The notes under the pieces: model-generated
Told to the model about the DNA's origin: nothing
Databases searched by the model: none
What the model saw: the letters and a program-made list of their open reading frames with translations, nothing else
NCBI GenBank assembly: GCA_963662715.1
Contig: OY759724.1
Coordinates: 3,270,001 to 3,302,000 of the forward strand
Direction: 5' to 3'
DNA from: Candidatus Omnitrophota bacterium
Lineage (GTDB): Bacteria > Omnitrophota > Gorgyraeia > Zapsychrales > JANLHA01
Length of the DNA: 32,000 nt
Shown here: in pieces, positions 1,524 through 32,000 of the stretch
How the letters are laid out: each line of letters begins with the position of its first letter
Position numbering within the stretch: the stretch's first letter is position 1
Position numbers and translations under genes: made by a program

Positions 1524-1532
1524 AAGTCATCG

Positions 1533-3143: not shown

Positions 3144-3146
3144 TAT

Positions 3147-4091: not shown

Positions 4092-4290
4092 GATTAGGCT
4101 CCTTCCTAAGCAAATGCTTATAAATCCCGTCGCTTATCTAAAAGACGGTAAGACTCAATGTGTGATATTTTTTTAACCTGACTTCAAAACAGACGCATAC
4201 CTATGCTGTTTAGCATACTATCATTCTTAGAATATTCATATTAATATTTAAATTATTTAAATATCCGTAGAATAAAAGCCCCGATAAGCA

Positions 4291-5076
4291 TTATAAGTAT
4301 CGGTAAATATACTGCGGCAGGTGGTATTCAATGTTCGTCAAGACATGGCCCAGCACCTTCGCATGACACTGGTGGAGATGTTCTGAAGCCCGTTTGACGA
4401 TGCCGCGCTGAGTGCGTCCGGCCTGAATGACCATAATAACGCCGTCAGCCTTGGCCCCCAGGATACCGGAATCCGTAACGGCGATGATGGGAGGAGTATC
4501 AATGATAATATAATCAAACTGGCGTTTGAGATCCGCCAAAAGCAGCTTCATTTTCTGGGAGTCGAGCAATTCCGCGGGATTCTCCGGCACAGGCCCGGAA
4601 GCCATAAAATTAAGATTATCCACATCGATCTGAAAAACAGCATCATCCAATGCGGCCTTGCCCTGCAGGACATCAGAAAGCCCCACGTCCTGGTCCAGGC
4701 CCAGATACTTGGCGATCCGGCCTCTGCGCATATCCGCGTCAATCACCAGGACTTTCGGCTTTTGGGACGACTGGGCCACCGTGACAGCCAGATTAAGCGT
4801 TGTGACCGTTTTCCCTTCTGTATTAATCGCGCTGGTAATGACCAGAACTTTGTGTGCTTTCGTTTTATTCATCGAAAGCACGTTTGTCCGCAATATCTTA
4901 TACTGCTCGGATATGGGGGATTTGGGATCAAAATACGTGATAATTCTCGGGTCAACTTTGGAGTCCCCCATCTTTTTAATGACCAAACGGTCGTGATTCT
5001 TAATTTTATTTATTTTGTCGATACGCTCCAAGCGTTCGTCAGCGGCTTTTCTCAGAGCTTCGGTTAATTTCCCCAT
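4291..5076 (-). CDS. Cytoplasmic BY-kinase (CpsD/CapB/EpsG-type tyrosine autokinase)
   Basis: Three P-loop motifs are present: Walker A SAINTEGKT, Walker A' VLVIDADMRRG and Walker B DYIIIDTPP. The C-terminal tail is Tyr-rich (EYHLPQYIYRYL). There is no transmembrane part, so this is the kinase half of a split system. Confidence 0.85.
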   Translation of the reverse strand: MGKLTEALRKAADERLERIDKINKIKNHDRLVIKKMGDSKVDPRIITYFDPKSPISEQYKILRTNVLSMNKTKAHKVLVITSAINTEGKTVTTLNLAVTVAQSSQKPKVLVIDADMRRGRIAKYLGLDQDVGLSDVLQGKAALDDAVFQIDVDNLNFMASGPVPENPAELLDSQKMKLLLADLKRQFDYIIIDTPPIIAVTDSGILGAKADGVIMVIQAGRTQRGIVKRASEHLHQCHAKVLGHVLTNIEYHLPQYIYRYL

Positions 5077-5357
5077 TTTCTAATATTCCTTTCATATTAC
5101 ACCGGGCAACAAGAGGGTCATCCTGTCAGCCGGCCGTTTGTTAAACACTCAAGTAATGTTTAATGGCCTCCTGCGCCTCCTGATGTTTCAGGAACGAATA
5201 TCCATGAAACGAAACGACCTCAGCCTGAGCGGGCCGGCGCGTTGCTGTCCCGTCTTTTCTGCCCTGCCACATATTTAAAAGATATTGTATGAATTTTGTC
5301 ATCTTATGTTTATTCCGGTTTCAAAAATTTCAATTCTATGCCCCGAGTAAAGAACAC

Positions 5358-5585
5358 TCAATTCTCGTTCTGATCCCGCATCAGAGAATGAATCCGGGCA
5401 TACCGTTTTTTCAATTCCCGGAATTTCTTTCTCGTCAAATATCCTTTATGGTACGCCATATCAAGCCACGCATTCTTTGCGCTGGACGCTTCGTCTTTAG
5501 GCAGACACAGGTCAACAATAAATCGTCTCCGCTGATCATCGGAATCCCTGGAAGTCGTGCGCGCTGTCCCCGGCGTTTTTTTCAT
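5358..5585 (-). CDS. Small basic hypothetical protein (75 aa)
   Basis: The ATG lies 8 nt after the ATPase stop and is preceded by GAGGAG. There is no recognisable domain. It is the only sizeable same-strand ORF in the roughly 500-bp spacer between the ATPase and kinase genes. Confidence 0.4.
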   Translation of the reverse strand: MKKTPGTARTTSRDSDDQRRRFIVDLCLPKDEASSAKNAWLDMAYHKGYLTRKKFRELKKRYARIHSLMRDQNEN

Positions 5586-5592
5586 CTGCTCC

Positions 5593-6498
5593 TCAAATCT
5601 CAGGTATTTTAATATTCAGACTTTCCCGCTCGTATCTTTCCTTCTCCACTTGATCCAGCCTTTGAATCGCTTTGGATGTGCTGGAAGAAATTTGCGTCAT
5701 CGGCGATTCATGGATCACTTCCCGCATGATATCAGCCGTAATAATGTCCGACCCGGCGATATATCCCGTCAGCAAAGCGCTGTCGCAGATTTGGTTCACC
5801 AGCCTCGGGACGCCTTTGGAATACTTCCAGACAAGATCTAACGCTTCCTCGGTAAAATACTGGTGGTCGCTCTCGCTGGCGATCTTTAAGCGGTGAACGA
5901 TGTACTCCTTGGTTTCTTTCTCCGTTAACGGGATCAAGTGATAAAAGACCGCGATACGCTGCCTTAACTGTTCCAGACGGGGCAAAGCGAGTTTCTTTTT
6001 TAATTCCGGCTGCCCGATGAAAACAATCTGGATCAGCTTTTCATGTTCCGTTTCCAAATTCGACAGCATCCGCACCTCTTCCAGAACCGAGGCCGCGAGA
6101 TTCTGCGCCTCGTCAATGATCAGCACCACATTGCGGTCATTCCGCAGCTGTTCGATCAGATAATAATTAAGCTGGGACAACAGCTTCGCTTTGGAGCCTG
6201 GCACAAACTCAATGTCCAAATCCTCCAGGATACTGACCAGGAGATCTTTCCCGCTGATATGCGTATTGGTGATAAGGACAACTTCCGTATTGGCCCCGAT
6301 CTGGTTCAGCAGCGTGCGGCAGATCGTGGTTTTTCCCGAACCGATATCCCCGGTGATCACGACAAAACCTTTTCTTTCCTGAATCGCATAGATCAAAGTG
6401 CTGATAGCTTCCGTATGCTTTGTGCTGGAATAAAAAAATCTTGAGTTCGGCGTTAAATTAAACGGCGAGTCTTTAAATCCGTAATGTTTCTTATACAT
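5593..6498 (-). CDS. ExeA/GspA/MshM-like AAA ATPase (PEP-CTERM-locus secretion ATPase type)
   Basis: The N-terminus YGFKDSPFNLTPNSRFFY is typical of the ExeA family. Walker A is GDIGSGKTT and Walker B is VVLIIDEAQNL. Confidence 0.85.
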   Translation of the reverse strand: MYKKHYGFKDSPFNLTPNSRFFYSSTKHTEAISTLIYAIQERKGFVVITGDIGSGKTTICRTLLNQIGANTEVVLITNTHISGKDLLVSILEDLDIEFVPGSKAKLLSQLNYYLIEQLRNDRNVVLIIDEAQNLAASVLEEVRMLSNLETEHEKLIQIVFIGQPELKKKLALPRLEQLRQRIAVFYHLIPLTEKETKEYIVHRLKIASESDHQYFTEEALDLVWKYSKGVPRLVNQICDSALLTGYIAGSDIITADIMREVIHESPMTQISSSTSKAIQRLDQVEKERYERESLNIKIPEI

Positions 6499-6558
6499 AT
6501 TCTCTCCTCACGCGTATCTTTTCTTTCCGGGCAAACCTTTTATACATTCAAGCTCACT

Positions 6559-7839
6559 CTATTTCAAAAAATTCTCCACAGCTATTGTGACGACAACTAA
6601 AACAATGCCTCCGAGAATCGTCAAGGCATACATCCAAACCTGTTTTTCCCTCTCCATCCGGACCGTCATTTCCGTTTCGATCTTGGAAATAGCCCCTAAT
6701 AACGGCCCTCCCAAATACTCTTTGGCTTCCTCGACATCAATAAAAGATTTATCCAAAAACTCGAGTAAAAAGACCAGCCCGATCCCCAGCGCCAATCCGA
6801 TGATGCATCCGATAACGGCAATCAGGACTCTGTTGGGCTGAAACGGCTGTAGAGGCACGCGCGGGGGGTCCAGAATGGTGTATTTTGTGCCTTCCTTGGA
6901 TAGCTGAAGGCTCTGGGTGATCTTGGCGGTTTCCAGCCGTTTTAAGAGCATATTATAGACCTGCTCATTAACTTCCACGTCTCTGGCCGCCACCGAATTG
7001 AGCAGCATGAGCTTATAGATATCGTCCTGCCCGCCGGCGACTTTTGTTTTTTCCGCTACGGCCGGGGCATCCATCTTGTCCAAGGCGGCTTTAATGCTGG
7101 CGATAAGCGGATTGCTCGTTTCCGAGGCCAGCTTGTCCGGATGAGTGTACTGAAGATTTTCCGCCTCTAATTCAGCCTTTTTGACGTCAATCTTTTCTTT
7201 GATCTGCCTTACAAGCGGATGCTTTGCCGTGGAATCCACCAACAGCTCGTCAAGTTTGTCCTGCAGCTGAGCGATCTCCGCCGACTTGATCTTACCCTTA
7301 TAGACCTTCAGTTGTTGCTCGATGAAGGAAATAGCGTCTGTGGTCTCCTGGGTCTGTATCTTTTTGTTCCTTTCAATAAAAATATCCGTGATGTTCTGGA
7401 CAACAGCCTGGGTCTGCATCGGATCAAGCCCGATATAAGCCAGTTCCAGAATATTATTCGACCTCAGCCTGATTTTGATGTCCTTCCGGATGCCCAAAAT
7501 AAGCGCCTCGAATTCCCGGCGGGTATCGACGTCCCGGTCAAGATTGAGCCTTTTGACAAGTTCAACCAGGCTCATCCATCCCAGCATGGATTCCTTAATC
7601 GTATTAAGACGCTGCTGAACCGTCGAGGATACCGCCAAGTCACTGAACAGGGGGTTATCTGTTTTTCCTTCCTCAACGAGAATGACCGTAGAGGAAATGT
7701 ATTTCTTCGGCAACAATATCCCGGTGCAAATCCCCAGCGCCAGCCCCAATAAAGCGGGAATGATAATCAGCTCCTTCCGGCGGAAGAACATCTTTAAATA
7801 AGCCATAGGAGACATTGTATCTGAATGTAGTTCTGCCAT
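6559..7839 (-). CDS. Wzz/GumC-type polysaccharide chain-length determinant (transmembrane partner of the BY-kinase)
   Basis: The 426-aa ORF has an N-terminal TM helix (LIIIPALLGLALGICTGILL) and a long coiled-coil periplasmic region. A C-terminal TM helix is preceded by the P-rich PPRVPLQPFQPNR motif typical of Wzz/PCP proteins. Confidence 0.8.
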   Translation of the reverse strand: MAELHSDTMSPMAYLKMFFRRKELIIIPALLGLALGICTGILLPKKYISSTVILVEEGKTDNPLFSDLAVSSTVQQRLNTIKESMLGWMSLVELVKRLNLDRDVDTRREFEALILGIRKDIKIRLRSNNILELAYIGLDPMQTQAVVQNITDIFIERNKKIQTQETTDAISFIEQQLKVYKGKIKSAEIAQLQDKLDELLVDSTAKHPLVRQIKEKIDVKKAELEAENLQYTHPDKLASETSNPLIASIKAALDKMDAPAVAEKTKVAGGQDDIYKLMLLNSVAARDVEVNEQVYNMLLKRLETAKITQSLQLSKEGTKYTILDPPRVPLQPFQPNRVLIAVIGCIIGLALGIGLVFLLEFLDKSFIDVEEAKEYLGGPLLGAISKIETEMTVRMEREKQVWMYALTILGGIVLVVVTIAVENFLK

Positions 7840-7889
7840 ATAGTTTTTCCTTAACTTTTGTCTTGCTTGATTATAATAAAGTTGTTCGC

Positions 7890-8714
7890 TTAAAAGCCTG
7901 TTGTCACTGCGCGGCCCGCACCAGCGGCGGTCCCGACCGGCGCTGCGACCGGCTGAATAGCCCGTAATGTTTTCGTTAAGAACGTCGCCGGGATATAGAT
8001 GACATCACCCGGTTTCATATCCAAATTCTGCCTTAAATCCCCCTCATATAAAAGGGCATAAACATCGACTTTCCGGATATTGGCATCGCCGGATTCGGAC
8101 GGAGTGATCAGCCGGCTTTTCCGGGTCACACCCGTCAATTGCGGCAGTCCGGCCTGCATGAGCGCTTCTCTAATAGTAATGGTATCGCCGCGCATAAAAA
8201 TCTTTCCCGGACGGCCGACTTCTCCGACCACATAAACGACCTTGCTGTTATACCCCACTATTTTCACCGAGACCTCCGGCGAAATAATATATTCGGCCAA
8301 AGCCTTCTGAATGGCATCTGCGGCTTCATCCTTGGTCAACCCGGCAATGAGGATGTCCCCGACAAACTCATACTGAATTTTTCCTTCCTGATTGATGAAA
8401 TACTGTCCGCTGACTTCCGGATGCCGCATAACATCAATTTCAATAACATCTGTGGCGCCGAGCGTGTACCGGCTGCTCTCAGCCTCAACAGGCAAAGCCG
8501 CTTCTTCACCTTCTCCGCGTTCCTCAGCCGCCACCCGGTTAAGAATATCATTAATCGTAGGATCTTCTGATGATGTCGAAACAGCGGTTTCCTCTTGCTC
8601 CGGCGGCTTGCTGTTATCGGGAGTCCAGTTTGCAAAATTCTGTGCTTCCCCCTGATGGGCAAATACCAGAAGAAATGCGCTTATTAGAAAATATGTATAA
8701 TATTTATTTTTCAT
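7890..8714 (-). CDS. Polysaccharide export protein (Wza/EpsD-like: Poly_export plus SLBB domains)
   Basis: A signal peptide (MKNKYYTYFLISAFLLVFAHQGEA) is followed by YTLGATDVIEIDVMRHPEVSG (Poly_export motif). An SLBB-like VYVVGEVGRPGKIF ... GDVIYIP follows. An AAGGAGA SD lies upstream. Confidence 0.85.
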   Translation of the reverse strand: MKNKYYTYFLISAFLLVFAHQGEAQNFANWTPDNSKPPEQEETAVSTSSEDPTINDILNRVAAEERGEGEEAALPVEAESSRYTLGATDVIEIDVMRHPEVSGQYFINQEGKIQYEFVGDILIAGLTKDEAADAIQKALAEYIISPEVSVKIVGYNSKVVYVVGEVGRPGKIFMRGDTITIREALMQAGLPQLTGVTRKSRLITPSESGDANIRKVDVYALLYEGDLRQNLDMKPGDVIYIPATFLTKTLRAIQPVAAPVGTAAGAGRAVTTGF

Positions 8715-8739
8715 CTGAATAATCTCCTTGGATTATGCC

Positions 8740-8928
8740 TTACTCAACTTCAAATAAAGTCTCGTGAAAATCTTTGATTTCTCGCAAATCCTGTTCATCA
8801 TAGACACGCCAGCCTCTCCAGTCACGTTTGGGTCTGCGGATCTTTCCTACTTTTTCCCATCTGGCCAATGTCTTCGGGCTTATCCCTACCGCCTCTGCTA
8901 CTTCTGTAATTGTCATACGCTTTTTCAC
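8740..8928 (-). CDS. Stand-alone MerR-type helix-turn-helix DNA-binding protein (62 aa)
   Basis: MTITEVAEAVGISPKTLARWEKVGKI...RGWRVYDEQDL matches the MerR N-terminal HTH and wing. It uses a GTG start at 8928 with AAGGAGG 7 nt upstream. There is no effector or dimerisation domain. Confidence 0.7.
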   Translation of the reverse strand: MKKRMTITEVAEAVGISPKTLARWEKVGKIRRPKRDWRGWRVYDEQDLREIKDFHETLFEVE

Positions 8929-9010
8929 TATACGGCCTCCTTATTTTATATTAAATCCGGCGTCTCGTCTTTCGAGTCACATGCTTTTTTGCTTGACAAT
9001 GGAAATAGGA

Positions 9011-9027
9011 AGCAATTATCATGCCAG
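9011..9027 (-). promoter_or_regulatory. Sigma-54 (-24/-12) promoter
   Basis: The minus strand reads CTGGCATGATAATTGCT. Against the consensus YTGGCACG-N4-TTGCW there is one mismatch, and the GG/GC spacing is exact. It lies about 70-100 nt upstream of the MerR-like GTG. Confidence 0.6.
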
Positions 9028-9322
9028 GATCATCCGGAACATATGATCAGAGCATTAAAACATTGGGATATAAAATGTTATGAAATAACGTTTCTTACCG
9101 CCCCATAATATTTCAGGGAGGGTTTAAGATATTGTTTAAAAGATTAGACATGCCTGTCCTGGACATACCCGGACAACAATGGAAAATACGCCACAACAAA
9201 TACTTAGGAAATGTTGAGAAAAATTATCAATATGCAATTAAATATACAATAATAGTAACAATACTGTAAATATAAAAAAATATTAACAATTATTTAGCTG
9301 TTTTAATACAAAAATAAACAAT

Positions 9323-9351
9323 TTGTTGTTAACAATACATTATGGTATACT
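9323..9351 (+). promoter_or_regulatory. Possible sigma-70 promoter of rpoN (TTGTTG-17-TATACT)
   Basis: The -35-like TTGTTG is at 9323-9328 and the -10 TATACT is at 9346-9351, with a 17-bp spacer. This would give a very short or absent leader before the ATGs at 9360 and 9366, and no SD is visible. The background is AT-rich, so a chance match is possible. Confidence 0.3.
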
Positions 9352-9365
9352 TTTTGCGTATGGGC

Positions 9366-10757
9366 ATGAAATTAAACATATCGCAGGTACAGAAACAAAT
9401 TCTGGCCCCATCCATGCAGCAATCCATTGAAATATTGTTGCTCCCCCTTTTGGACCTAAGCCAGAGCATTGAAGCCGAAATGCAGAACAATCCCCTCCTG
9501 GAGATTGATGAAGAAAAACAGCGGGAAAGCAGCAAAGATGAAGATCAAGCAGACAATTCACTGGACAACATGATCAACCAGATCGTTGAGAATAGCGAAG
9601 CCCCATACTACCACAAAGAGATTTACGAAGAACCTCCGGATGAAAAGCCCTACAAAAGGCAAGAAACCCTGGAAGAAAAATTGTCCAGGCAACTCCATAT
9701 CGACCTGAACGACCCTTTACATGAAAAAATCGGAGAATTCATCATCGGGAATATCAATGAAGACGGCTATTTAACTTTAAGCTGTGAAGAAATAGCGGAA
9801 ATCCTCGGCCTACAGGACACAACAGAGGTTGAGTTTGTTCTAAAGATCATTCAGGATTTCGACCCTGTCGGCATGGCGGCCCGGGACCTCAAAGAGTGCC
9901 TCCTGCTGCAGATACCCCACAAACTTAATTCCAAAATTGAATTAGCGACTATTATGGTCCGGGATTACCTGCAAGAACTCGGGCAGAAAAAATATCAATA
10001 TATGGCAAGAAAGCTCAAAGTCAGCCTGGATGAAATCAAGGAAACGGCACGCCTTATCGCTTCTTTGGATCCGCGTCCCGCGCGAAATTATCGGCCGATC
10101 AGAGGAAGTATTTATATCAAACCCGATGTGTCTGTGGTGAAAGACGAGAACGACCGCTATGTCATCAATGTCAATCATGACGGGCTGCCCCCGTTACGCA
10201 TCAATCATAAATATAAAAGCCTGATTCGCGGAGGGAAACTCTCGACGGAAGAGAAAAAATTCGTCAAGGAACAGCTGCAGAACGCGATCATATTCATCAA
10301 AAGCATTGAACAGCGAGGCCAGACCATCCACGCCATTGCTGAACACATCCTCAAAACTCAGGAGAACTTCTTTAATAACGGCCATTCCGGGCTTGTCCCC
10401 ATGACGCTTAAAGATGTGGCCCTGGCGGTCAACCGCAATGAATCCACGATAAGCCGCGCTATTAATAATAAATACATGGAAACCCCCAAAGGAATTTATG
10501 CCTTTAAATTCTTTTTCTCCCAGGCTGTAAGTCAAAATCAGAATGCCGGGCCCCAGGAAGAAGGCAGCGGGGTTTCCAACAGAAGCGTTAAAGAGAAGAT
10601 CAAAGAGCTCATTGAACATGAAGATAAATCCTCGCCTCTGTCTGACGCGGATATTCAAAAATATTTCACCCGGAAAGGCATGAATATTGCCCGCCGCACC
10701 ATTGCCAAATACCGGCAAAAAGAACGTATCCTCCCTTCCCATCTGCGGAAAATATAA
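9366..10757 (+). CDS. rpoN: RNA polymerase sigma-54 factor
   Basis: The N-terminal region I is MKLNISQVQKQILAPSMQQSIEILLLPLLDL. An acidic region II follows. The C-terminus has an HTH and the RpoN box ARRTIAKYR. The ORF is open from 9342. I prefer the ATG at 9366 (MKL...) or 9360 by comparison with other RpoN N-termini. Confidence 0.95.
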   Translation: MKLNISQVQKQILAPSMQQSIEILLLPLLDLSQSIEAEMQNNPLLEIDEEKQRESSKDEDQADNSLDNMINQIVENSEAPYYHKEIYEEPPDEKPYKRQETLEEKLSRQLHIDLNDPLHEKIGEFIIGNINEDGYLTLSCEEIAEILGLQDTTEVEFVLKIIQDFDPVGMAARDLKECLLLQIPHKLNSKIELATIMVRDYLQELGQKKYQYMARKLKVSLDEIKETARLIASLDPRPARNYRPIRGSIYIKPDVSVVKDENDRYVINVNHDGLPPLRINHKYKSLIRGGKLSTEEKKFVKEQLQNAIIFIKSIEQRGQTIHAIAEHILKTQENFFNNGHSGLVPMTLKDVALAVNRNESTISRAINNKYMETPKGIYAFKFFFSQAVSQNQNAGPQEEGSGVSNRSVKEKIKELIEHEDKSSPLSDADIQKYFTRKGMNIARRTIAKYRQKERILPSHLRKI

Positions 10758-20422: not shown

Positions 20423-21916
20423 TCATTCATTATTATTACAAACTTTCCGCCGGTCAACAATCCTTTTTTCTTTTCCCGCTGTTTCCAGCTGCAGGCGTTC
20501 GACCATATCCGCAAGAGCGATAAACTCAATTTTATTGGGGGATATTTCCGTCTCCAGATAAAACTTCTTCTTAACATGCTCCGCGAACGTCTGGACAGGG
20601 ACAGAGTCCTTGGCAGTGATATAGATATTCAGCAGATCAACCTCAAAAGGGTCGTCGTCCTTCTTGCCGATCTCGATCTGCCATTCTTCGATCTCCGCAC
20701 ACCCGTCCAATACGGAAGACAATTTGTTCAAATTCACCAGCGACCCCTTGATTTTCGTCAACTGCAGGTCCTTGATGTTGGAAATCCGGGTGATATCGCT
20801 CGAGATCACCGGGACCGTACGTCCGCAATAAGGGCAGGGCTGGTAGGTGATCCCTCCTTTCACAAAGTCGCCTGTCCGGTAGCGCAGCACACTGCTGCCC
20901 CGGGAATTGATCGAGGTGTAGACGAGCTCCCCGTCCTCGCCTTCTCCCTTAACCTTGCCGGTCTGCGGGTCGATAATTTCAAAGATCTCCTTGTCAGGAT
21001 AAGTGTGGTACCCGCTGGAGGCATTCCCGCCGGCCGGGCATTCCGCCCAGGCCATGCGGGCTTCCGTAAACCCGTACGTCCCCAAAACATAGACCTCCCG
21101 GGACCCGAGTTCGGCTAAGAGCTCGGTGATTTTGTGTTTAAACCCCGGCTCAACGCGGGCCGCTCCCAAAACGATCTTTTTGACAAAATCCATGCGGCAC
21201 CCCATGGCCCTGGCCTCTCTTAAGACATGGTAAAGATAACTGGGCGTCCCCAGGATGACAGCCGGCCGGATTTTCAGAATCGATTTGATATTGCCTTGCG
21301 TGCCGAAAACCTTCCCCCCTCCCGTACTTAAAATGAAATGCCCGGCGGCGATCCCGCCCAGCACAACCTGCCAGAAGGCCAAATGCGGGGCATAAGGAAA
21401 AAGGTTCACCAGATATTCATGAGGGGCGATATCCAGCACCTGGATCAGCCGCTCTCCGGCATGATTTAAATTATTCAAGTCGTACCGGGAATAAAGGTAA
21501 GCCAGCGGCGTCTGGGTGGTACCGCTGGTGAATGTCATAAAAACAGGCCGGAACTCACGCCCGAGCTTTTCCCGGACATGTTTTTCCCCGTATACGAGCT
21601 TCTCAACCTGAAGAGCCACTAACTTGCTTATCGGCCAGGACTGCTTTAGTGTGGACACGCTGGGCCGCAGGACAAACTCACGGAACTTGTCCGGCTTTTC
21701 CGGGTCGACAAAATCCTGTTTTGTTGTAAACGGGACCTGCCCGAGGTCTTCAACGGTTCGGATGGACCGGGGGCGGATGGCATTCCGGTCGAATAACTGC
21801 TTATAAAAAGGGCTGAAGGGATATAAATAATGATTGACAAACTCGAATAATCTCTTATTCTGGCAATCCCTGATTTTCTGCGGAGAGGAGAACTGTAATT
21901 GATGCCAACGTGTCAT
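20423..21916 (-). CDS. Adenylate-forming enzyme of the phenylacetate-CoA ligase / coenzyme F390 synthetase (PaaK/CapK) family
   Basis: The AMP-binding motifs are FTSGTTQTPL, YGFTEA and RYRTGD. The 497-aa size and the N-terminal helical domain are typical of the PaaK-like subgroup. Confidence 0.8.
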   Translation of the reverse strand: MTRWHQLQFSSPQKIRDCQNKRLFEFVNHYLYPFSPFYKQLFDRNAIRPRSIRTVEDLGQVPFTTKQDFVDPEKPDKFREFVLRPSVSTLKQSWPISKLVALQVEKLVYGEKHVREKLGREFRPVFMTFTSGTTQTPLAYLYSRYDLNNLNHAGERLIQVLDIAPHEYLVNLFPYAPHLAFWQVVLGGIAAGHFILSTGGGKVFGTQGNIKSILKIRPAVILGTPSYLYHVLREARAMGCRMDFVKKIVLGAARVEPGFKHKITELLAELGSREVYVLGTYGFTEARMAWAECPAGGNASSGYHTYPDKEIFEIIDPQTGKVKGEGEDGELVYTSINSRGSSVLRYRTGDFVKGGITYQPCPYCGRTVPVISSDITRISNIKDLQLTKIKGSLVNLNKLSSVLDGCAEIEEWQIEIGKKDDDPFEVDLLNIYITAKDSVPVQTFAEHVKKKFYLETEISPNKIEFIALADMVERLQLETAGKEKRIVDRRKVCNNNE

Positions 21917-22046: not shown

Positions 22047-22778
22047 TCACCTGCGCTGTCTGAAAAAAACACCAAACAGCCCCAGACTGAAGAGCACAGC
22101 CGTTGCGGGTTCCGGCACAGCGGACGTTCCAAAGCCTAAACGTGTGAATTTCAAATCATCGACAACCGGGAAATGACCTGAGACGGAAAAACCTTTTATA
22201 TCAGTTACGTCGCGATGGAGAGCCAGAAAAAATCCGGCATTGACGGCATCTTCATCAGGCAGGATATCAACAGCCACAGATACTGCTTGATTGCCGGTAA
22301 GAAGAAAATTTATTTGAACTTCCCCATATGCCGCTCCGCCGCCCAGCCCATTTAAAAAGGCCCCCAGGCCGTTCACAGGGTCTTGGAACAAAAAATACAT
22401 CCCTCCGGCGTCGCCGTTTAAAACGATATAACCGTCACGCTGCTCATCCCAATAGCCATTTTCTCCCAGGTCATAATACCCATTACCAACCCATGACGTT
22501 GTCGGTGTCGATGCCCCCGAAGAACCCGTTTTAATGGAAGGATATGCGTTCCAAACGATGTCTTCTCCGGCTGAATCTCCGACATTCAAAGGGCCGTTGG
22601 TTTCAACGAACTCACCTTCAAACTGACTGAAATCAACAAGTGTCCAGTCCGGGAGAGGTTCATCTGTAATCATTCTGGTTATGGCATCAATATCAGTAAT
22701 AAGAGCTTGGGCCGGCTGAGGAGAAAGGAAAAGATAAAAAACAGTTAAGAAAACAGATAGTAATTTTAAACGATTCAT
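22047..22778 (-). CDS. PEP-CTERM sorting-domain protein (exosortase substrate)
   Basis: An N-terminal signal peptide is present. The C-terminus is VPEPATAVLFSLGLFGVFFRQRR, which is a PEP motif, a TM helix and a basic tail. Confidence 0.9.
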   Translation of the reverse strand: MNRLKLLSVFLTVFYLFLSPQPAQALITDIDAITRMITDEPLPDWTLVDFSQFEGEFVETNGPLNVGDSAGEDIVWNAYPSIKTGSSGASTPTTSWVGNGYYDLGENGYWDEQRDGYIVLNGDAGGMYFLFQDPVNGLGAFLNGLGGGAAYGEVQINFLLTGNQAVSVAVDILPDEDAVNAGFFLALHRDVTDIKGFSVSGHFPVVDDLKFTRLGFGTSAVPEPATAVLFSLGLFGVFFRQRR

Positions 22779-23487: not shown

Positions 23488-23548
23488 CGGAGAGGGGGAA
23501 TCCTTCCGAGCGAGTTCCGCAGTCAGATGTTTACTTTCATTCCAGGAG
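23488..23548. repeat. Left arm of a long imperfect inverted repeat interrupted by the IS256-family element
   Basis: It pairs with 24888-24943 (see finding). Confidence 0.7.
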
Positions 23549-24887
23549 GGTAGTGCAACGAATTTTTCGCACATTTAAAGGAACAAAAAAGTCCTCAAAC
23601 TGCTGCGAGTTCCGGGAGCAGCCGCTGCTTGCGTAAGTAATCCATGTTCAAATACTTTTTTTGACTCCAGTATGTTCCTGCAATATGGCGTAACCGTCCG
23701 GAAGCTAACATTAATGCTGATTCCCCATCTGGAAAACATCCCACAACCCGCGTTCTTCTTCGTATCTCTCTGATAATCCGCTCCATTGGATTATTCGTTC
23801 GAATCCGTATCCAATGTTCTACCGGGAAGTCCATGTATGTTAAAGTCTCACCAATGCCTTCATTAACACATTCGGCGGCTTTATTTAACTTCATCTCTTT
23901 GAGTTTTTGATAAATCGCCTGGGCTTTGTTAAAGGCGGCTGACGAACATTCTTGGGCATGAATAGCTTTTAGCATGGTGGCAACCGTCTTAATTTTTCCG
24001 TTTGGCACATAACGGAAAACATTTCTGTAGAAATGAACCATACATCTTTGCCATTTAGCCATGGGATATATTTCTTCTGCGGCATTGAGCAATCCCAGAC
24101 ATTTATCGGTGATCAATAATTGAATCCGGTTAAGTCCTCGTTGCTTTAAATGTCTCATCAACGCTTGCCATCCCGTCTTGTCTTCCCGGGCCCCCTCTAT
24201 AATCCCGATGATCTTTCGATATCCATGCCAATCAACTCCTATGGCAATTAAGACGGATACATTGCTGACTTCACCACCCCAGCTCCGCTTTAAGCTAATC
24301 CCATCCATATAAACATACGGATATTCTTCATCTAAAGGCTCATGTCTCCATTGATTGATCCGTTCATAGATCTTCTTGTTTACTCGGCTGACTGTGCTAG
24401 CCGATACTTTTGATCCCCATAATGCTTCAGTTATATCTTCAACTCGTCTTACCGACACTCCTGCTAAATACATCTCCATCATCGCTTCTTCTACTGATAT
24501 CTCTCGTCGTTTATATCGTTCAACTATGGCTGTCTCAAACGGTAATTTTCTTAGCTTCGGCATTCTTAATTTTACTTTTCCTACTCGTGTCTGCAATTGC
24601 CGCTCATAATAGCCCGCCCGTGTGTCCTTCCGGGCTTCTGTGCGTTGATATCTCTCGGCTCCAACCAAGTGATCGGCTTCTGCATTCAATAAATTATTCA
24701 ATGTCTCTTCCACGCTGCCCCGAATCTTCTCATCAAGTTTTTCTTGGATTTTTTCTTCATTAACTGTAATAATAGTATTGTTCATTGAGTCCTCCTTTTT
24801 GGTTAGGTTTGGTTGCCTAGTTATTATACCAATTGGAGGACTTTTTTTGTCCCTTCTGCAAATGTGCGAAAAATATTATACGTTATC
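23549..24887 (-). mobile_element. IS256-family insertion sequence (about 1.34 kb) with imperfect terminal inverted repeats and a 7-8 bp target duplication
   Basis: The left end is GGTAGTGCAACGAATTTTTCGCACATTT... and the reverse complement of the right end is GATAACGTATAATATTTTTCGCACATTT..., sharing a 15/15 core ATTTTTCGCACATTT. Further matches run inward to ...CAAAAAAGTCCT. The flanking direct repeat is (T/C)CCAGGAG at 23541-23548 and 24887-24894. Confidence 0.8.
23595..24785 (-). CDS. IS256-family (mutator-type) DDE transposase
   Basis: The 396-aa ORF has LNNLLNAEADHLVGAERYQRTEARKDTRAGYYERQLQTRVGKVKLRMPKLR, the characteristic IS256/Transposase_mut N-terminus. The ORF appears intact. Confidence 0.95.
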   Translation of the reverse strand: MNNTIITVNEEKIQEKLDEKIRGSVEETLNNLLNAEADHLVGAERYQRTEARKDTRAGYYERQLQTRVGKVKLRMPKLRKLPFETAIVERYKRREISVEEAMMEMYLAGVSVRRVEDITEALWGSKVSASTVSRVNKKIYERINQWRHEPLDEEYPYVYMDGISLKRSWGGEVSNVSVLIAIGVDWHGYRKIIGIIEGAREDKTGWQALMRHLKQRGLNRIQLLITDKCLGLLNAAEEIYPMAKWQRCMVHFYRNVFRYVPNGKIKTVATMLKAIHAQECSSAAFNKAQAIYQKLKEMKLNKAAECVNEGIGETLTYMDFPVEHWIRIRTNNPMERIIREIRRRTRVVGCFPDGESALMLASGRLRHIAGTYWSQKKYLNMDYLRKQRLLPELAAV

Positions 24888-24943
24888 CCAGGAGAAACAT
24901 CTGTTGCGAGGACTGTCTGAGCGAAAAGGGTTCTCCCTCTCCG
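24888..24943. repeat. Right arm of the inverted repeat interrupted by the IS256-family element
   Basis: It pairs with 23488-23548. Confidence 0.7.
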
Positions 24944-25010: not shown

Positions 25011-25472
25011 TTACAGAAGGAATAAACATACAATCAATGACAAAATATAGAATGTTAGGGAGACAATAAGAACAAAAAGAATATAAAAAATACTTCTAGA
25101 AATATTTTTAGCGAAAAATGATAACGTATTTAAAGGAATTAAAAACAGTATACAACCTACCCCCCCTAATAATGCACCTTCTAAATGAGAAAAAGATATC
25201 AATCTACTACTTAAAGCCCCTAGAATAAATCCAACTACGGAACCCAACAATAATCTTTTAAGTATAAATTTAAAATAGCTATTCTTATCAGTTTCTAACA
25301 TTTCACTTAAATTATGACTTAATACAATCCCTACGCCTAAAATAACAAAAAATAAAATTTCACTAATATCTTTTCCAATAAATAAGATTGAATAGATACC
25401 CCCCAAAATAATAGCAAGGAGAATTAGTCGAAAATTAACGAATAAAAGATCTTTAAAAGATTTAATACTCAT
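25011..25472 (-). CDS. Multi-pass membrane protein (153 aa, about 5 TM); putative immunity protein for the upstream Rhs C-terminal tip
   Basis: It starts 13 nt after the Rhs stop, with a GGAGAT SD overlapping that stop. It is very AT-rich, like the Rhs tip. Position and composition fit a toxin-tip/immunity cassette, but there is no sequence-level family call. Confidence 0.6.
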   Translation of the reverse strand: MSIKSFKDLLFVNFRLILLAIILGGIYSILFIGKDISEILFFVILGVGIVLSHNLSEMLETDKNSYFKFILKRLLLGSVVGFILGALSSRLISFSHLEGALLGGVGCILFLIPLNTLSFFAKNISRSIFYILFVLIVSLTFYILSLIVCLFLL

Positions 25473-25484
25473 ATACCATATCTC

Positions 25485-28400
25485 CTATTTTGGACAAATT
25501 TTATTTAATTCTTCCTTCGCCCTATTGTACTCCTCATTTCCAATTTCACCGAGATCATCCCAAGGCAGATTTGGATTAATTTCTTTTAACTCCTCAAGCA
25601 ATAAATCACCCTCTTCTTTTGACTTATCTAACATCTCATTTAATTCTTTTAAATCTTGAGAAGTCAATTCACCTTTGTCGTAAATTTCTTTTGTTCTTTC
25701 TTCTCGCTTTTGAATATTTTTAATATCTTTTAATGTAAGTTTATCAGCGATAGCTTCAGCCATTGCGTTTCTAGTTTTTTCACTTATTTTAGGTAATTTA
25801 GATTTAATTTGGTCAGAAATTTTATTCCTTGCAATTCTCCATACTGGATTGGACTTCATCGGACCTCTAGGTACTAATCCAAAAGAATCAATCAAGTTAA
25901 CTGGATCATCCAAAGCGTAAACATATAGATCCGCATCCCCATCGGCAAAGCCAATCGGGTCTTTGGCAGTCCAACGGCCGGTCTCGGGCGAATAATCTCT
26001 CATCCCAAAGCGAACGAGGCCAGTATCCCGGTCATGCAAACCCCCTGCGAACCCGAAAGGCACCTCAAAGGACGGGTCAGAATCAGCAATGATGTTGCCG
26101 AATGAATCATAGTCGATCTGCTTGATGATGGTTCCGGTTGAATCCGCAACAGCCCGCAAAGAGCCGACCTGGTCATACGTCAGGTAATACGTGGTCCCTG
26201 ACTTGTTCATGCTAAGCGGCATGCGGCTGTCAGCATATTCAAACCGCATCAGGAGATTATCCGAGCCATCATAAATAGCGAGTAATCGCGTTAACCCAAG
26301 CCATAAATACTTCTCGGTAATACTTCCATTGACTACCTTGGCGATCCGCCGGCCTAAAGGATCATGTTGATAGGTGATGATATCGCCTGAAGGCAAGTCG
26401 ACCTGCAGCAGTTCCCCTCTCGAAGAATAATCATAAGATGTTGTATCCGCGCCATCAACCTTATTCCACAGGAAACCATCCTGATCATACTGATAGGTCG
26501 CTGTTCCTACGCTTAAGAGCTGATCCTCAGTATTATATGATAAAGAACGTCCCGCAATCCCCCTTAAACTGTTCATCTCATACGTCCGCACTCCCAGGGG
26601 ATCAGTATCATTATAGCGGTATTCCTCTACCAGCACACCATCTTTTTCCACATGCGTCAACCGCCCCACCTCATCGTAAGTGTAAACATAATTTACGTTT
26701 ACCCCAGCTACCGATTCCGACTTGGTCGCGATCTGTCCGTTATTATCATGCGTCAGCGTCCAGGACGAAACGGCTGTCCCGCTCACCGACGACGCCTGAC
26801 TGGCCACTTCCCCGTAACCGTTAAAGGTGCGCACCGTATCAAATGTCCCGTTGCCCACCCCCTCCGGCAGACCGTTCGACGCATTATTCGTAATAATAAA
26901 GCCCGAAGCCTGCGTGAGGAGCCCGTCATCATCGTAGATGTAATTGCTCGTCCCCCCGGCATAGGTGAAAGCGGTGAGGTTGAAATCATCGTTGTAAGTG
27001 TAAGACAAGGTTTGACTGACCGTTCCCAATAAAGTCTGGGAGGTGAGCAGGTCCCCGTCATAACCATAGAAGATCTGCTCCCCGCCTTTAGAGGTGGACT
27101 GCACCTGGCCCGATGCCAGGTAGCTCAGACTCACATGGCCTTCCGGGGTCTGAATCTCAGTGAGCTGCCCGCCGGTGTAAACATTCACGATCTGCGCGCC
27201 GGAAGGATAGGTGGTCTGCGTGAGCCGCCGGTCCCGGTCATACGTATAGGTCGTGGAACCGGAAAGCGGCGGGTCGTATTCTTCCGCGAGGTTAACGTTA
27301 TTATATTGAAAACCATGGTCAATGCCTGACGGGTTGGTCAGCACCGTCATATTGCCGTTGTTGTCATAATCATAATACAGGTCGGTACCGTCCGGCCGGT
27401 GCACCGCTGTGGTGCGGCCCAAGGCGTCGTACTCAAAGGTGGTCAGATGGTTTTCCGGGTCAAGGATCGAATAGACGTTGCCGTCAGCGTCATACTCAAA
27501 TCTTGTCTGGCGCGTCCCGGTCTGCACGGTTTCAACCCGGCCCCGGGTATCATAGGTGTAACTTGTATCTAACAGCCCCGGCACGCTCACGCTACTGGTC
27601 AGCAAAGTTGCCGGATCATACGTGGTTGTCACCACCCGGCCTTCCGGGGACGTGGCCGTGCTCTGAGACGTTAACAGATCCTGCACCACGGCTGTCGTCT
27701 TTCCGTTGAGGGAAGCCGTGCGGGTAATACGGTCGGTATCCCCATCGGAATTCGTATCTTCATAGAGCCGGTTATAAACCATCTGGGCGGTTAGCCCGGC
27801 CGGGGTGACGGTCGTTGCCTGCCGCGTATATTTAAAGCGGTATTTGGGATCATAATCTATAATATATTCCCGCTCGGTTTCATTCGGCTGGGTGACCTGG
27901 GTCGTGAAGCCGTCGGATGACCGGAAATACACCGTGGAATTCGTACTGGATGACGTGGTCACGGTGGTCTGCGCCCCGCCGGCAACCTCCTGGTCAAGAT
28001 AGGTTGTGGCATAGCCTTCAACCGTGGTCACTCCTGATTCCACATCACCGCTGACCAAAACCTGCCGGGTAAAAGGATTCTGCTTTCCGGCCTGGTCTTC
28101 AGTGGTGTTTATCCGGCCGTCAGCATTAAACGTGTGAATAAAGAAATTGCCGTTAGGTTCGGTTTCCTGAGTCATCAAGCCGTTGTTGTACAAGAAATGA
28201 TACGCTGTCGCATCCGGGTAGCTGATCTGGCTGAGCAGATAGCTGCTCGGGTTAACAGCCAGTTCTGTCCGTATGCCGTCCGGAGAAATAATGGCCGTCG
28301 GCACCCCTCCGGCGGTGCGTTCGACCGTGACCTGATTGCCGAACCTATCGGTCACTGAAACCAGCCGGTCGCTGGCATCATAATTAAAAGTTTCCAAGAC

Positions 28401-31400
28401 CATACCTGTATTCAGGTCCACCGTCTCTTTATGCCGGCCGTCGGCATAAAAAATATACCCCACGCCTTCTTCAATAAACTGATTATCGGTCGGGTCGGAA
28501 GAAAGGGCAAACGCCGTGCTTTGTGAAGCTTCGACCTTGCGGACGCGCTTATTGTACCAGTCAGCGATATACACGCTGCCGCCGTCATCCACCGCCACGT
28601 CCTGGGCATAACTTATCTGGGCTTCGTTCGCCGGGCCGCCGTCCCCGCTGAACCCGCTCAGCCCGGTGCCGGTTATGGTCGTGATGATCCCGTTGGTATC
28701 GACTTTACGGACCACGGAAAAGTAAAGTTCGCCGATATACAAATTTCCGTTGGTGTCCATAGCCAGACCGTTTGGATTCGGCAAGCCTGCGCTGGTGGCC
28801 GGGCCGCCGTCCCCGCTGGGTTCTATGATATCCCCGCCCTGCCAGATTTTTCCGGCCACGGTTGTGATAATACCGCTGGCCGCATCGACTTTACGGACCC
28901 GGCTGTAATCCGCGATATAAAAATTGTCCGAACTGTCTACGATGACGTTTTTGGCATTGGTCAGAATAACGGACGCGGCCGGGTCTCCGTCATCATAATA
29001 AGGAAGGCCTCCTCCGGCAACAGTGGTGATGATCCCGCTGGTATCGACTTTTCTTATCCGCAGGTTCCCTGAATCAGCGATATAAAGATTGCCCGCGCTG
29101 TCCACGGCAATGCCGGAAGGGGCATTGAGCTTCGCAGATGTGGCCGGGCCGTTATCCCCGCTGAACCCGACACTCCCGTTACCGGCTACAGTGGTGATAA
29201 TCCCGCCGGTGTCGATCTTACGGATACAATTGTTCCCATTATCCGCGAAGTAAATGTTGCCCGTATTGTCCACGGTCAACCTGCGGGGATTGTTCAAACC
29301 GGCAGAGGTCGCCGGGCCGCCGTCCCCGGTGTAATCCGCGCTGCCGTTACCGGCAACATGGTAAATATATCCGTCCGGTTCGACTCTGAAAATACGGTTG
29401 GAATAATATAAGGCAATATAGAAATTACCGGAACTGTCCGTGGCCAGACCGGAGATATGGCTCATATCCCTGTTTACCGCCAGCGGATCTGCCCCGTTGC
29501 CGTTACCCGGATCCCCAGTCCCGGCAACCGTCGTGATAATCGTGCTCCCGGACTCAAGCTGACGGCCGTTGCCTTTATTGAGGATCCTCGTATCTTTAGG
29601 AGTAATGAACAGGTGATGGTGGTTGGATAAAGTCCAGCCTTCGGCAAGTTTGCTCGGTAAAGCGGCTATGTTATAAAGGGTCTGCATCTCCTCTGTCCAG
29701 GAGATGATTTCATTCCGGGCCGGAACTTCGGTGACGGTTGTGCCCGGAGTGCCGAAGGACGGCATGGTCGGGGTTGAGCCGAAACCGTAATAGATCGCGT
29801 CATACACAAAACCGACACGGATCGAAGCGGTCGGGGCCAAGACTCTTTGCCCTAAATAATCCAAACCGTCCCAGGAAAACACCGCCTGCTGGTCCGGCAA
29901 GGCCGGAAGCGTCTGTTCAAATAAACGTCCGCCCACTTCAACCTGGACAATAATTTCTTTTAAACTGGCCGGCACGGTGGAACCGCTGGCCGGAACGGTA
30001 ATGACCGTGTGATACCCGCCCGTGCGGCTGGTGGCATAATGCAGGGTCAGGCCGGTCCCGGCAACAGGGATATCTTCATGATAAACCCGGCTGCGGCAAG
30101 AGACGTAAGAATCTTCAGAAACATCGCTTCTAACGGCATGAGCTTTACATTGATCTGTCTGCTGTTCGACATTAGAGCTTTTTCCGGAATTCGGGTCAGT
30201 CGAACCTTCCGGAGGGCCGGACGGATAATTGCAGTCCCAGGCCGAAAAATGAGGCACCTCAACCCGCCAGTATGTATCGCCGGGTGTGTATTCAGATGGG
30301 TCATCAAGTCCCGCAACTTCATCCGCATAATCTCCGTCACTGTCCAGATCATCCGGAAGAAAATCGCCGTCCATATCCAGGCTGTCAACAATACCGTCGC
30401 TGTTATCATCCAGCAGGGTCACCACCCTGCCGTTTTCTGAAGCGATCCATTCCGCCTGGTCCGGGTCGTAATATCCGACCGGAACAATTTCCCCCACGTC
30501 AAACCCTAAAAAGTTATCGATCCAGGTGATAACCGGGTTCTCAAACCGCACGTTGGCAACACCGTCCACGCTCAATTCCACACAATACGTGTAGGATGTG
30601 GTCGGCGGCAGGATCGCGGGCATGGATTCCGGGGTTTTAAACTCCGTGGCCCGGATGGTCATCGTCGAAAGAGCGAAAAGGTCATCGCCGTTTTCATCAA
30701 CGGCAAAAGCCTGATTGTCGCCGGTCATCACCACAGTGGCTTTACGGGTGCCGAACGTGTCGGTCACCGGGCTGCTTTCATGCAGCAACACGGTTTGTGC
30801 ATTGCCGTCCAGGGTAAGTGTCGTGGCTTTTTGGTCTTCGGCTAATAATACCGGGGTTTCAACAATAACCACATCGTTGATAGGCACCTCGACTTTACGG
30901 TACGCGGTTATCAGCCCCTGCTTTTGAAAAATCACGTTAAGAGTTGCGTCGCCTTCAACCGGCAGAGAATATTCGCCGCTGGTGTCGGTCTGTACTGTGC
31001 CGTATTCCGGATGACCGTCAATTGTGACCAGGACATCAGGAACAGGGTCGTCATAAATATCCAGCACCTGGCCTCTTATCACGGCAAAAGTATCCGGATC
31101 GTATTCTGCGATAGTGGCATCGTCCGGGACAAGCTGTTCATATTGCTGGCCGTAAGCCCCGTCCGGCTGAGAAGCAGGTTCCGACTGCACGGAAACCAGC
31201 ACCTGCGCGCTGGCCGAGCCGTTAGGCCCGGTGGCCGTGACAGTATACGTTGTCGTATGCTGGGGCGTCACTTCGAGTGTTCCGCTCACCCCGACAGCCC
31301 CCATATCCTGATCCATATACACGTCATAAGCATCTGTTGACGTCCAGGAAAGGGTTGTGGATTCTCCGGCCTGAATCACCGCCGGGTTGGCGGAAATTTC

Positions 31401-32000
31401 AATAGCGGGCCGTCCATCATCCACCAAAACTGTTACGGTATCTCTGGCCGTGCCTTCGGGCCCGGTCGCGGTAATGGTATAAGTCGTATCCGTGACCGGA
31501 TAAACAGCCACAGCCCCGTTAGGATCTACTGCTCCGATTTCAGGTTCGATCGTACAAGTATCCGCATCCGTGGAAATCCAGTACAGGGTTGTAAACTCCC
31601 CGGCCTGAATCGCCGTAGGCTCCGCCTCAATGCTCACGGTCGGCGGAAGCGTGGTATATTCGGTGACGACATCAAAATTCGTGTCATGGTTCAGCCAGCC
31701 GTTGGCATCGCCATACTGAATATAATAATAGGCGATATCATTATCAGCGATATCTCCGTAATCCGGGATACTAGTCCAGGCAAATGTCACTGTTATTGTA
31801 TCCGTGCCGATCACGACTTCGCTGTCCCCAGCCTGCAAATTTATGAATTCAGAGCCGTACCCGCCTTCCTTAATAAACCCCGTATCCTTATACCAGCTTA
31901 AGTATCCCCGGTTGGGATTGCCCGAATCATCCTGGTAATTGATCAGAATCGACACCCTCTCCATGGAATCCGGTTCCGGCACGTTAAACACCAAGGTCGC
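25485..32000 (-). CDS. Giant RHS/YD-repeat protein with teneurin-like architecture (N-terminus beyond the window)
   Basis: The frame is open to nt 32000. Reading from the N-terminus there are two tandem Ig-like repeats (31188-31646) and a carboxypeptidase-regulatory/TTR-like domain (about 30879-31082). An Asp-rich Ca-binding-like stretch follows (about 30300-30415), then six NHL blades (about 28530-29550). Many YD repeats follow (..YxYDxxGRL/V..). The RHS core ends ...[42 protein letters not shown] (ends at nt 25875). A 129-aa tip follows. Confidence 0.9.
   Translation of the reverse strand, partial: [2171 protein letters not shown]
28530..29550 (-). repeat. Six tandem NHL-repeat coding units (about 165-170 nt each) inside the Rhs gene
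   Basis: Recurrent DNA and protein blocks are seen: ...[32 protein letters not shown]..IRKVD... At the DNA level, gccgggccgccgtccccg and gtgat(g/a)at(c/a)ccg blocks recur. These are coding repeats, not a CRISPR array. Confidence 0.8.

Follow-up and report, generated by a model that had tools for sequence, protein, structure and literature searches.

A candidate toxin/immunity cassette of an undescribed family at the end of a teneurin-like Rhs protein in Omnitrophota

Closest described systems

Teneurin-like proteins (TLPs), a class described in 2026, are defined by an FN-plug, an NHL propeller and a YD shell in that order; they have been reported from six phyla, Omnitrophota not being among them, and their C-terminal domains average ~15 kDa (PMC13018210). 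Their recognition as a toxin class is recent, some of these domains have been shown to be toxic, and most of the payloads are without an assigned function. The present analysis concerns a stretch of 32,000 nucleotides from contig OY759724.1 of a Candidatus Omnitrophota bacterium, called the window throughout, in which the gene of a TLP-type carrier ends in a 129-residue tip and is followed directly by a gene for a 153-residue protein with five transmembrane (TM) helices. Together, the tip and the membrane gene (25011-25874) probably constitute a toxin/immunity cassette, their layout being a usual one for interbacterial toxins and their immunity genes. What is found is best explained by horizontal exchange of this cassette at the end of a teneurin-like Rhs protein with putative export by Sec. 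The type of system, an Rhs/TLP polymorphic toxin with immunity encoded downstream, is a known one. Neither the family of the tip nor the fold predicted for it nor the pairing with a five-TM protein is described in the libraries and the literature searched, and the TLP system is extended to Omnitrophota, largely uncultured and possibly predatory or epibiotic bacteria, as a new host phylum.

The locus is most readily compared with the TLP of Bacillus inaquosorum (BiTLP), which it resembles in a carrier with the order TTR, FN-plug, NHL and YD shell, in the conserved Arg/Asp/Asp residues and the cleavage Leu, in a ~15-kDa C-terminal domain and in a small gene directly downstream. However, the window tip is unrelated to the hydrophobic C-terminal domain of BiTLP, and it was matched to none of the classes of function predicted for TLP C-termini (PMC13018210); no mention of polytopic membrane immunity proteins for TLPs was found in the same paper.

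A further likeness is offered by Tse5 (RhsP1) and Tsi5 of Pseudomonas aeruginosa, where an Rhs shell and a cleaved tip without predicted enzymatic activity go with an inner-membrane immunity protein (PMC9637101, PMC10684867). TM and amphipathic helices are predicted for the C-terminal domain of Tse5 (Tse5-CT), which enters the bilayer, whereas the window tip lacks any hydrophobic segment; delivery of Tse5 is through a PAAR-like domain, VgrG and the type VI secretion system, whereas the window carrier has a signal-peptide-like N-terminus and adhesin-like repeats; and Tsi5 has two TM helices against the five of the window partner.

The best functional analogy for the tip lies with the Lipocone tips of polymorphic toxins, which are likewise small, soluble and all-alpha (PMC12419801). 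Their predicted targets are lipid head groups or lipid-linked precursors at the membrane, and every one of the immunity proteins is either a TM protein or a lipoprotein, one of them with a four-TM core (PMC12419801). The Lipocone core is a four-helix cone whose ancestral site has its His on H2, its Glu on H3 and its Asp on H4 (PMC12419801), whereas the window tip contains no His and its conserved E40 and D44 share one helix. TelC, SAA and Wnt were absent from the Foldseek results for the tip in the PDB. Lipocone membership was considered for the tip and rejected, given the missing His triad, the different layout of the motifs, the absence of a fold match and the absence of a Pfam family at threshold.

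With the cassettes of Rhs, WapA and CdiA proteins, the locus shares a variable tip after a conserved core motif and immunity encoded directly downstream (PMC3482391), as well as a foreign base composition, orphan copies of the tip-immunity pair and flanking mobile elements. It departs from them in that neither the tip nor the immunity candidate belongs to any profile family searched. Three features of an Rhs/YD polymorphic toxin are found here: RHS repeats and a core domain, an autoproteolysis motif, and a variable tip that is exchanged together with the downstream gene.

A teneurin-like carrier and its exchangeable end

The features of the locus are the following.

25875-32000, minus strand: teneurin-like Rhs/YD carrier gene, running past the window edge (Pfam domain matches)
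25875-26000, minus strand: autoproteolysis module RDYSPETGRWTAKDPIGFADGDADLYVYALDDPVNLIDSFGL (end of TIGR03696; alignment to 9pt5)
25488-25874, minus strand: C-terminal tip, candidate toxin, 129 residues (reading of the open reading frame, ORF)
25482-25487, minus strand: TAG stop of the Rhs gene and AGGAG of the next gene, overlapping (arrangement kept in L001, a related locus)
25011-25472, minus strand: candidate immunity gene, 153 residues, five TM helices (ORF, hydropathy, AlphaFold, charge count)
23488-24943, minus strand: IS256-family insertion sequence (IS), with its transposase at 23595-24785 (PF00872, E 8.5e-108; inverted repeats)

The Rhs ORF spans 25485-31994 on the minus strand and continues off the window, its stop lying at 25485-25487; in the protein database record (P0003) the full-length carrier has 2771 residues. 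Along it, Pfam places TTR, FN-plug, NHL propeller, YD shell and Rhs core in that order, with matches to TEN_YD-shell (4e-38), TEN_NHL (2e-36), TTR_TEN1-4, FN-plug_TEN1-4, NHL repeats and RHS_repeat. RHS repeats are matched by PF05593 at 3.9e-32, PF25021 begins near residue 945 and PF25023 covers residues 1179-2012. The FN-plug model PF24329 scores 28.4 bits at residues 668-733 against a cut-off of 27.8, and in the same region the E value is 5e-14 for the match to teneurins and 1.5e-8 for that to the Bacillus TLP. The carrier thus has the order FN-plug, NHL propeller and YD shell by which TLPs are defined. Because of this teneurin domain order and of the alignment to 9pt5 described below, the carrier is taken to be a bacterial TLP and the tip to be its encapsulated C-terminal domain; judged from its sequence, the protein is more specifically a teneurin-like protein than a generic Rhs protein.

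The profile of the Rhs-associated core (Rhs_assc_core, TIGR03696; E 1.4e-19) is matched over all 76 of its 76 positions, up to residue 209 of the 338 C-terminal ones and exactly 129 residues ahead of the stop codon, which bears out the initial annotation in its placing of a 129-residue tip after the motif DSFGL. The best solved relative of these C-terminal 338 residues is BiTLP (9pt5/9ifo, E 4.7e-52). In the alignment, the Arg of MRDY, the Asp of DPIG and the Asp of DSFG fall on BiTLP R2103, D2116 and D2140, of which the two aspartates are catalytic and the arginine is required for autoproteolysis (PMC13018210). The final Leu of DSFGL (25877-25875) falls on L2144, the last ordered residue ahead of the cleaved C-terminal domain of BiTLP (PMC13018210), and DSFGL/V is the predicted cleavage point. 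In the window the motif reads PVNLIDSFGL, with Ser in place of the Pro of the PxxxxDPxGL type. The aspartyl autoprotease site of the carrier is intact, cleavage itself being predicted.

The base composition changes where the conserved part of the carrier ends. The guanine-plus-cytosine (GC) content of the Rhs core is 0.536; the tip has 0.318, the membrane gene 0.262 and the IS element 0.427. That the low values persist through the tip and the next gene had been noted earlier and holds. The abrupt switch that had been placed at 25875 stands in part: there is a sharp drop, but measured in 30-nucleotide steps it sets in at ~25,940-25,900, which is 25-65 nucleotides ahead of the last base of the motif and within the last ~20 codons of the conserved core, and it is less knife-edged than had been described.

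Moreover, the two genes are tightly joined. The membrane gene had been described as having a Shine-Dalgarno sequence that overlaps the Rhs stop, and this is what the letters read: AGGAG at 25486-25482 overlaps the TAG at 25487-25485, with the ATG of the membrane gene at 25472. Among 5000 shuffles of 25011-25874, none gave 153 stop-free codons and 13 gave 129; both frames are judged real because shuffled sequence rarely or never reaches such lengths.

At its other end, on reading, the N-terminus of P0003 (MSSHCKKILKGVAAVLLIACFSSPVFAEDP) resembles a Sec signal. Residues 1-800 hold five near-identical repeats of ~150-165 residues (VFNVPEPDSMERVSILINYQDDSGNPNRGYLSWYKDTGFIKEGGYGS) and then two immunoglobulin-like domains. 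Only the last of the five repeats lies in the window (31500-32000), and within the scanned part no Pfam family matches the repeat.

The tip, its relatives and the membrane partner

The tip has 129 residues, a mass of 15.0 kDa and an isoelectric point of 5.8; it contains no His and one Cys, and 41% of its residues are charged. Its grand average of hydropathy (GRAVY) is -1.09, and the highest Kyte-Doolittle hydropathy over 19 residues is 0.02. A model built with AlphaFold2 from a three-sequence alignment (mean predicted local distance difference test, pLDDT, 87.9; predicted template modelling score, pTM, 0.74) is all-alpha, with helices at 10-26, 32-45, 48-66, 72-99 and 105-126. The strongly charged, helical domain without recognised catalytic motifs that had been described from the letters is therefore what the composition and the model give.

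Searches of libraries with the tip gave no significant match in Pfam, NCBIfam, PHROGs or PADLOC, where the sub-threshold matches were of coiled-coil type only. Nothing in the PDB sequences fell below E 0.2 in single-sequence or profile searches, and Foldseek returned no fold neighbour for the model (best E 2 in the PDB and 1.3 in BFVD). A word-indexed protein search found no relative, and its profile version only the proteins P0004 and P0005; relatives were likewise absent from the plasmid collection, the viral contigs and 185,579 species genomes, a representative collection that does not hold the window's own genome. The claim of an undescribed family survives these searches, and the profile libraries assign the tip to no known non-toxic domain. 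Overall, the tip family is new to all libraries searched, undescribed and very rare.

An exhaustive phmmer scan of 1.84 billion cluster-representative proteins with the tip returned only itself, P0004 (E 1.3e-5, 30% identity) and P0005 (E 7.4e-4, 26% identity). One metagenome scan with the tip added the loci L004 and L005, and a search with the membrane protein found L001. Including the window, the family has six loci in three divergent subfamilies: (a) the window and L001; (b) L002, with P0004; and (c) L003, with P0005, together with L004 and L005. P0001, P0003, P0004 and P0005 each form a singleton cluster. By pairwise BLASTP with composition correction, the tip of L005 matches that of the window at 8e-12 and P0004 at 5e-7.

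Three motifs are common to the three aligned subfamilies, namely NPxW (N9, W12), MAExxAD (38-44) and LPWD (103-106), the second of them reading (A/K)MAE-x-(I/V)AD in the alignment. Glu40, Asp44, Asp106, Asn117, Lys33, Lys97 and two Trp are invariant in the alignment, which holds no conserved His. Helix 32-45, with K33, M38, A39, E40, A43 and D44, is the most conserved and the least amphipathic of the five (hydrophobic moment, muH, 0.14, in a range of 0.14-0.50 that is ordinary for a soluble bundle); it would fit a core helix that carries functional acidic residues. The catalytic folds of the HNH/His-Me, HEPN, GHH and HxE/CxxC deaminase types were tried for the tip and rejected, given that it has no His at all and that none is conserved in the family.

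The sole Cys of the tip, Cys127 (25494-25496), lies three residues from the C-terminus (ICPK) and has a counterpart in L001 (PCPK, 144-146); the C-terminus of P0004 reads ECCVSG. In BiTLP, C2216 of the C-terminal domain is joined through a disulfide to C719 of the FN-plug, which tethers the cleaved payload (PMC13018210). In the window carrier, cysteines are found 7 and 24 residues upstream of the segment that aligns with the FN-plug.

As a single unit of low GC, the tip and the membrane gene are met again in other metagenomes. A small hydrophobic ORF follows the tip after 8-15 nucleotides in six of six loci, the complete ones having ~154 residues and five TM helices, and wherever the junction with the carrier is on the contig the tip starts directly after a DxxGL motif. 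The cassettes of the relatives have a GC content of 0.24-0.34 against 0.38-0.44 in their flanks. IS elements adjoin or interrupt the cassette in the window and in L004, and orphan copies occur in L002 and L003.

The closest relative, L001, is a contig of 925 bp from run SRR23004075, which holds the last 50 residues of a tip with 86% identity to that of the window and a partner of 155 residues with 73-74% identity to the 153-residue protein, joined by the same TAGGAG-to-ATG junction. DNA similarity between the two loci spans both genes and ends at the stop codon of the membrane gene. The ratio of nonsynonymous to synonymous substitution rates is 0.14-0.18 for the end of the tip and 0.18-0.24 for the membrane gene, and both are under purifying selection. 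The cassette is bounded by the cleavage motif on one side and by the stop codon of the membrane gene on the other.

In the second subfamily, P0004 is an orphan Rhs C-terminal fragment of 260 residues with the junction DIDGL/LPR, and upstream of its gene are an integrase-like fragment and two more small called genes; the hydrophobic ORF of L002 (MNIKKDGYDIYAVSIISVLF) begins 15 nucleotides past the stop and leaves the contig. In the third, the junction of L004 and L005 reads DPLGL/LERK. L005 has an ORF of 154 residues 8 nucleotides after the tip, with five hydrophobic segments and the charge pattern of a protein with its N-terminus inside, and the orphan tip of L003 is 100% identical to that of L005 from the first codon after DPLGL. 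The hydrophobic ORF of L003 is partial and reaches the contig end.

Two arrangements within the third subfamily may be recorded beside these. At 609-1210 of L003, P0005 is a stand-alone tip in which a new 15-residue N-terminus replaces the Rhs core and which adjoins a divergently transcribed IspD-like gene, as a displaced orphan module. At 1212-2339 of L004, an IS3-type element lies inside the membrane gene (OrfA 2000-2269 and OrfB 1242-1985, both on the minus strand); the cassette is otherwise 97% identical to that of L005, whose matches on the two sides of the element overlap by 6 nucleotides, suggesting a target-site duplication. In L004 the immunity gene would thus be inactivated, next to a C-terminal fragment of an Rhs protein, the upstream end of which lies at the contig edge.

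The co-occurrence of the tip with its membrane partner, proposed as a test in the initial annotation, is borne out to the extent that public data reach. A small hydrophobic ORF stands after all six tips, but demonstrable homology to the window partner is confined to L001; what the partners of the other subfamilies have in common with it is size, position and a topology of five TM helices.

The 153-residue protein had been credited with about five TM helices, and hydropathy, the AlphaFold secondary structure and the positive-inside count agree on five. It has 8 Lys/Arg inside and 1 outside (11 and 0 in the L001 counterpart), which points to an N-terminus inside and a C-terminus outside; its periplasmic loops are predicted to have 4-5 residues (KDISE, SHLE), and its sole sizeable loop, of 20 residues (54-73), would be cytoplasmic. 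The AlphaFold model is weak (pLDDT 63), and a Foldseek search of the PDB with it was uninformative because the model is poor. In Pfam, NCBIfam, PHROGs and PADLOC the protein has only sub-threshold matches of the TM-composition kind, among them matches to holins (families 2359 and 175 of PHROGs at E 0.0025-0.0043; Phage_holin_3_2, PF04550, at E 0.035 and 15 bits against a cut-off of 25), and these holin matches are probably compositional.

Possible action of the cassette and its surroundings

Several lines of evidence support the earlier proposal of a toxin/immunity cassette: the unit of low GC, its recurrence at six loci, the edges of the cassette and the absence of a match to a non-toxic profile. 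How such a cassette might work can be sketched as follows. As in other Rhs/TLP proteins, the ~15-kDa tip would be cleaved after DSFGL, held within the YD shell and released into a neighbouring cell. There, as a soluble five-helix domain, it would have the cytoplasmic membrane as its site of action and a target that is embedded in the membrane or linked to lipid; it would work as an enzyme or a tight binder, and would not itself form a pore. The five-TM protein would keep the producer and its kin safe, either by shielding this target or by trapping the tip at the face of the membrane. Action at the cytoplasmic membrane is suggested because nearly the whole of the cognate protein lies within the inner membrane, and a membrane-associated site of action, the weakest step of the scheme, is put forward tentatively, with confidence a little short of even. 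The lack of His and of a hydrophobic segment makes His-dependent enzymes and classical pore-formers unlikely, and the latter lack argues against insertion of the Tse5 or BiTLP kind. The description of the tip as non-enzymatic or membrane-acting, given in the initial annotation, is still an inference, and the invariant MAExxAD and LPWD could equally mark the site of an enzyme. The boldest form of the proposal would see here a new class of toxin fold and activity, in which a His-free, charged five-helix domain disables a membrane-embedded or lipid-linked target without inserting and is guarded in Omnitrophota by fast-evolving proteins with five TM helices, which screen the target or the route of entry without binding the active site of the toxin; in this full form it is rather unlikely.

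Several points weigh against the toxin/immunity reading and its membrane-associated version. Direct contact between toxin and immunity protein is hard to picture because the tip is hydrophilic and its partner has nearly no soluble surface. The majority of characterised Rhs tips act in the cytoplasm. The model has a depth of three sequences, and stretches rich in Lys and Glu are readily predicted to be helical; AT-rich DNA, for its part, tends towards hydrophobic-looking peptides. Across the subfamilies, homology between the membrane partners is not detectable by BLASTP (E 1 and 0.12) or by hhalign (probability 0.2%), so that the notion of a conserved partner rests on position, size and topology. 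Further, the family is tiny, with two of its partners partial at contig ends, and the roles of toxicity and protection are assigned to it by analogy.

Two rival explanations keep a toxin and change its mode of action. It is quite improbable that the tip is a pore-forming or depolarising toxin of the Tse5-CT or BiTLP type, blocked by the five-TM protein through helix-helix contacts within the membrane in the manner of colicin immunity. An integral-membrane immunity protein does accompany the Rhs pore-former Tse5 (Tsi5, with two predicted TM regions; PMC9637101), the one C-terminal domain of a TLP to have been studied structurally is active on membranes and shows toxicity from the periplasm alone (PMC13018210), and the window partner is almost entirely intramembrane. 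Yet Tse5-CT and the BiTLP domain have predicted TM or hydrophobic segments and the window tip has none: its hydropathy is low throughout, its charge is high, no glycine zipper was seen on reading the sequence, and the amphipathicity of its helices is that of an ordinary soluble bundle. Improbable, too, is a tip that acts as an enzyme in the cytoplasm, for example on nucleic acids or nucleotides, with the membrane protein blocking import across the inner membrane (entry exclusion) and no binding of the toxin. Most characterised Rhs and TLP tips are indeed cytoplasmic enzymes, a metal could be bound by the invariant E40, D44 and D106, and the immunity protein has its single sizeable loop on the cytoplasmic side. 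Nevertheless, the absence of His from the window tip excludes HNH, His-Me, HEPN and many other nucleases, neither a known toxin profile nor a neighbouring fold was found for the tip, and no cited polytopic entry-exclusion immunity protein for an Rhs toxin was found.

Two others give up the toxin/immunity pair altogether. Tc toxins are released via holin/endolysin cassettes, and the 153-residue protein could by analogy be a holin-like release factor for the YD protein, as in release by a Tc-toxin lysis cassette ('type 10'), and not an immunity protein. The weak holin-family matches speak for this, but all of them lie below threshold, as is typical of matching by TM composition. The membrane gene travels with the tip and not with the carrier, following the carrier-less orphan tips of L002 and L003 and sharing the low GC and the boundary of the cassette; moreover, the carrier has its own signal-like N-terminus, and no endolysin or spanin gene adjoins the membrane gene. 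With a sub-threshold score and a context that is not a lysis cassette, a holin identity was rejected, and such a release function is barely credible. That the tip is a non-toxic tail, such as a plug, a tether or an adhesion module, beside a functionally unrelated membrane gene is highly improbable, although nothing ties the tip to a known toxin and charged helical bundles are frequent among non-catalytic domains and immunity proteins. Against it, the tip directly follows an intact autoprotease site, is exchanged together with the membrane gene as one unit, is found in orphan copies next to an integrase or IS elements and has a size that fits the ~15-kDa payload of TLP shells, and the tight overlap of the Shine-Dalgarno sequence and the stop is conserved between the window and L001.

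Returning to the toxin/immunity cassette, a tip that has no relatives outside its family and yet a confident model and invariant motifs would be a compact target in the search for new toxic activity. A hydrophilic tip with a buried partner also poses the question of how immunity is achieved, whether by shielding of the target or exclusion, or by direct binding; were five-TM proteins to shield the target, the logic of immunity would be an uncommon one for Rhs systems. New unassigned Rhs tips are common and the present findings, resting on computation, are at the level of annotation, for which reasons their interest is moderate.

As for the surroundings, the IS256 copy that had been noted downstream of the membrane gene is confirmed, its edge lying 67 bp from that gene. 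A Mutator-type DDE transposase (PF00872) is flanked by terminal inverted repeats, as in IS256 elements. These repeats are nested, imperfect and unusually long, and lie at 23488-23505/24926-24943, 23562-23576/24860-24874 and 23577-23602/24830-24855. Beside the cassette, at 315-10757 and 22047-22778 of the window, lies an exopolysaccharide and PEP-CTERM neighbourhood with genes for a polysaccharide pyruvyl transferase, an NAD-dependent epimerase, a Wzz/GNVR chain-length protein, an AAA_22 ATPase and sigma-54, as well as a PEP-CTERM protein of 243 residues. A ligase-like housekeeping gene of 497 codons at 20423-21916 has its best matches (L006-L085), with 49-70% identity, almost only in metagenome-assembled genomes of Candidatus Omnitrophota.

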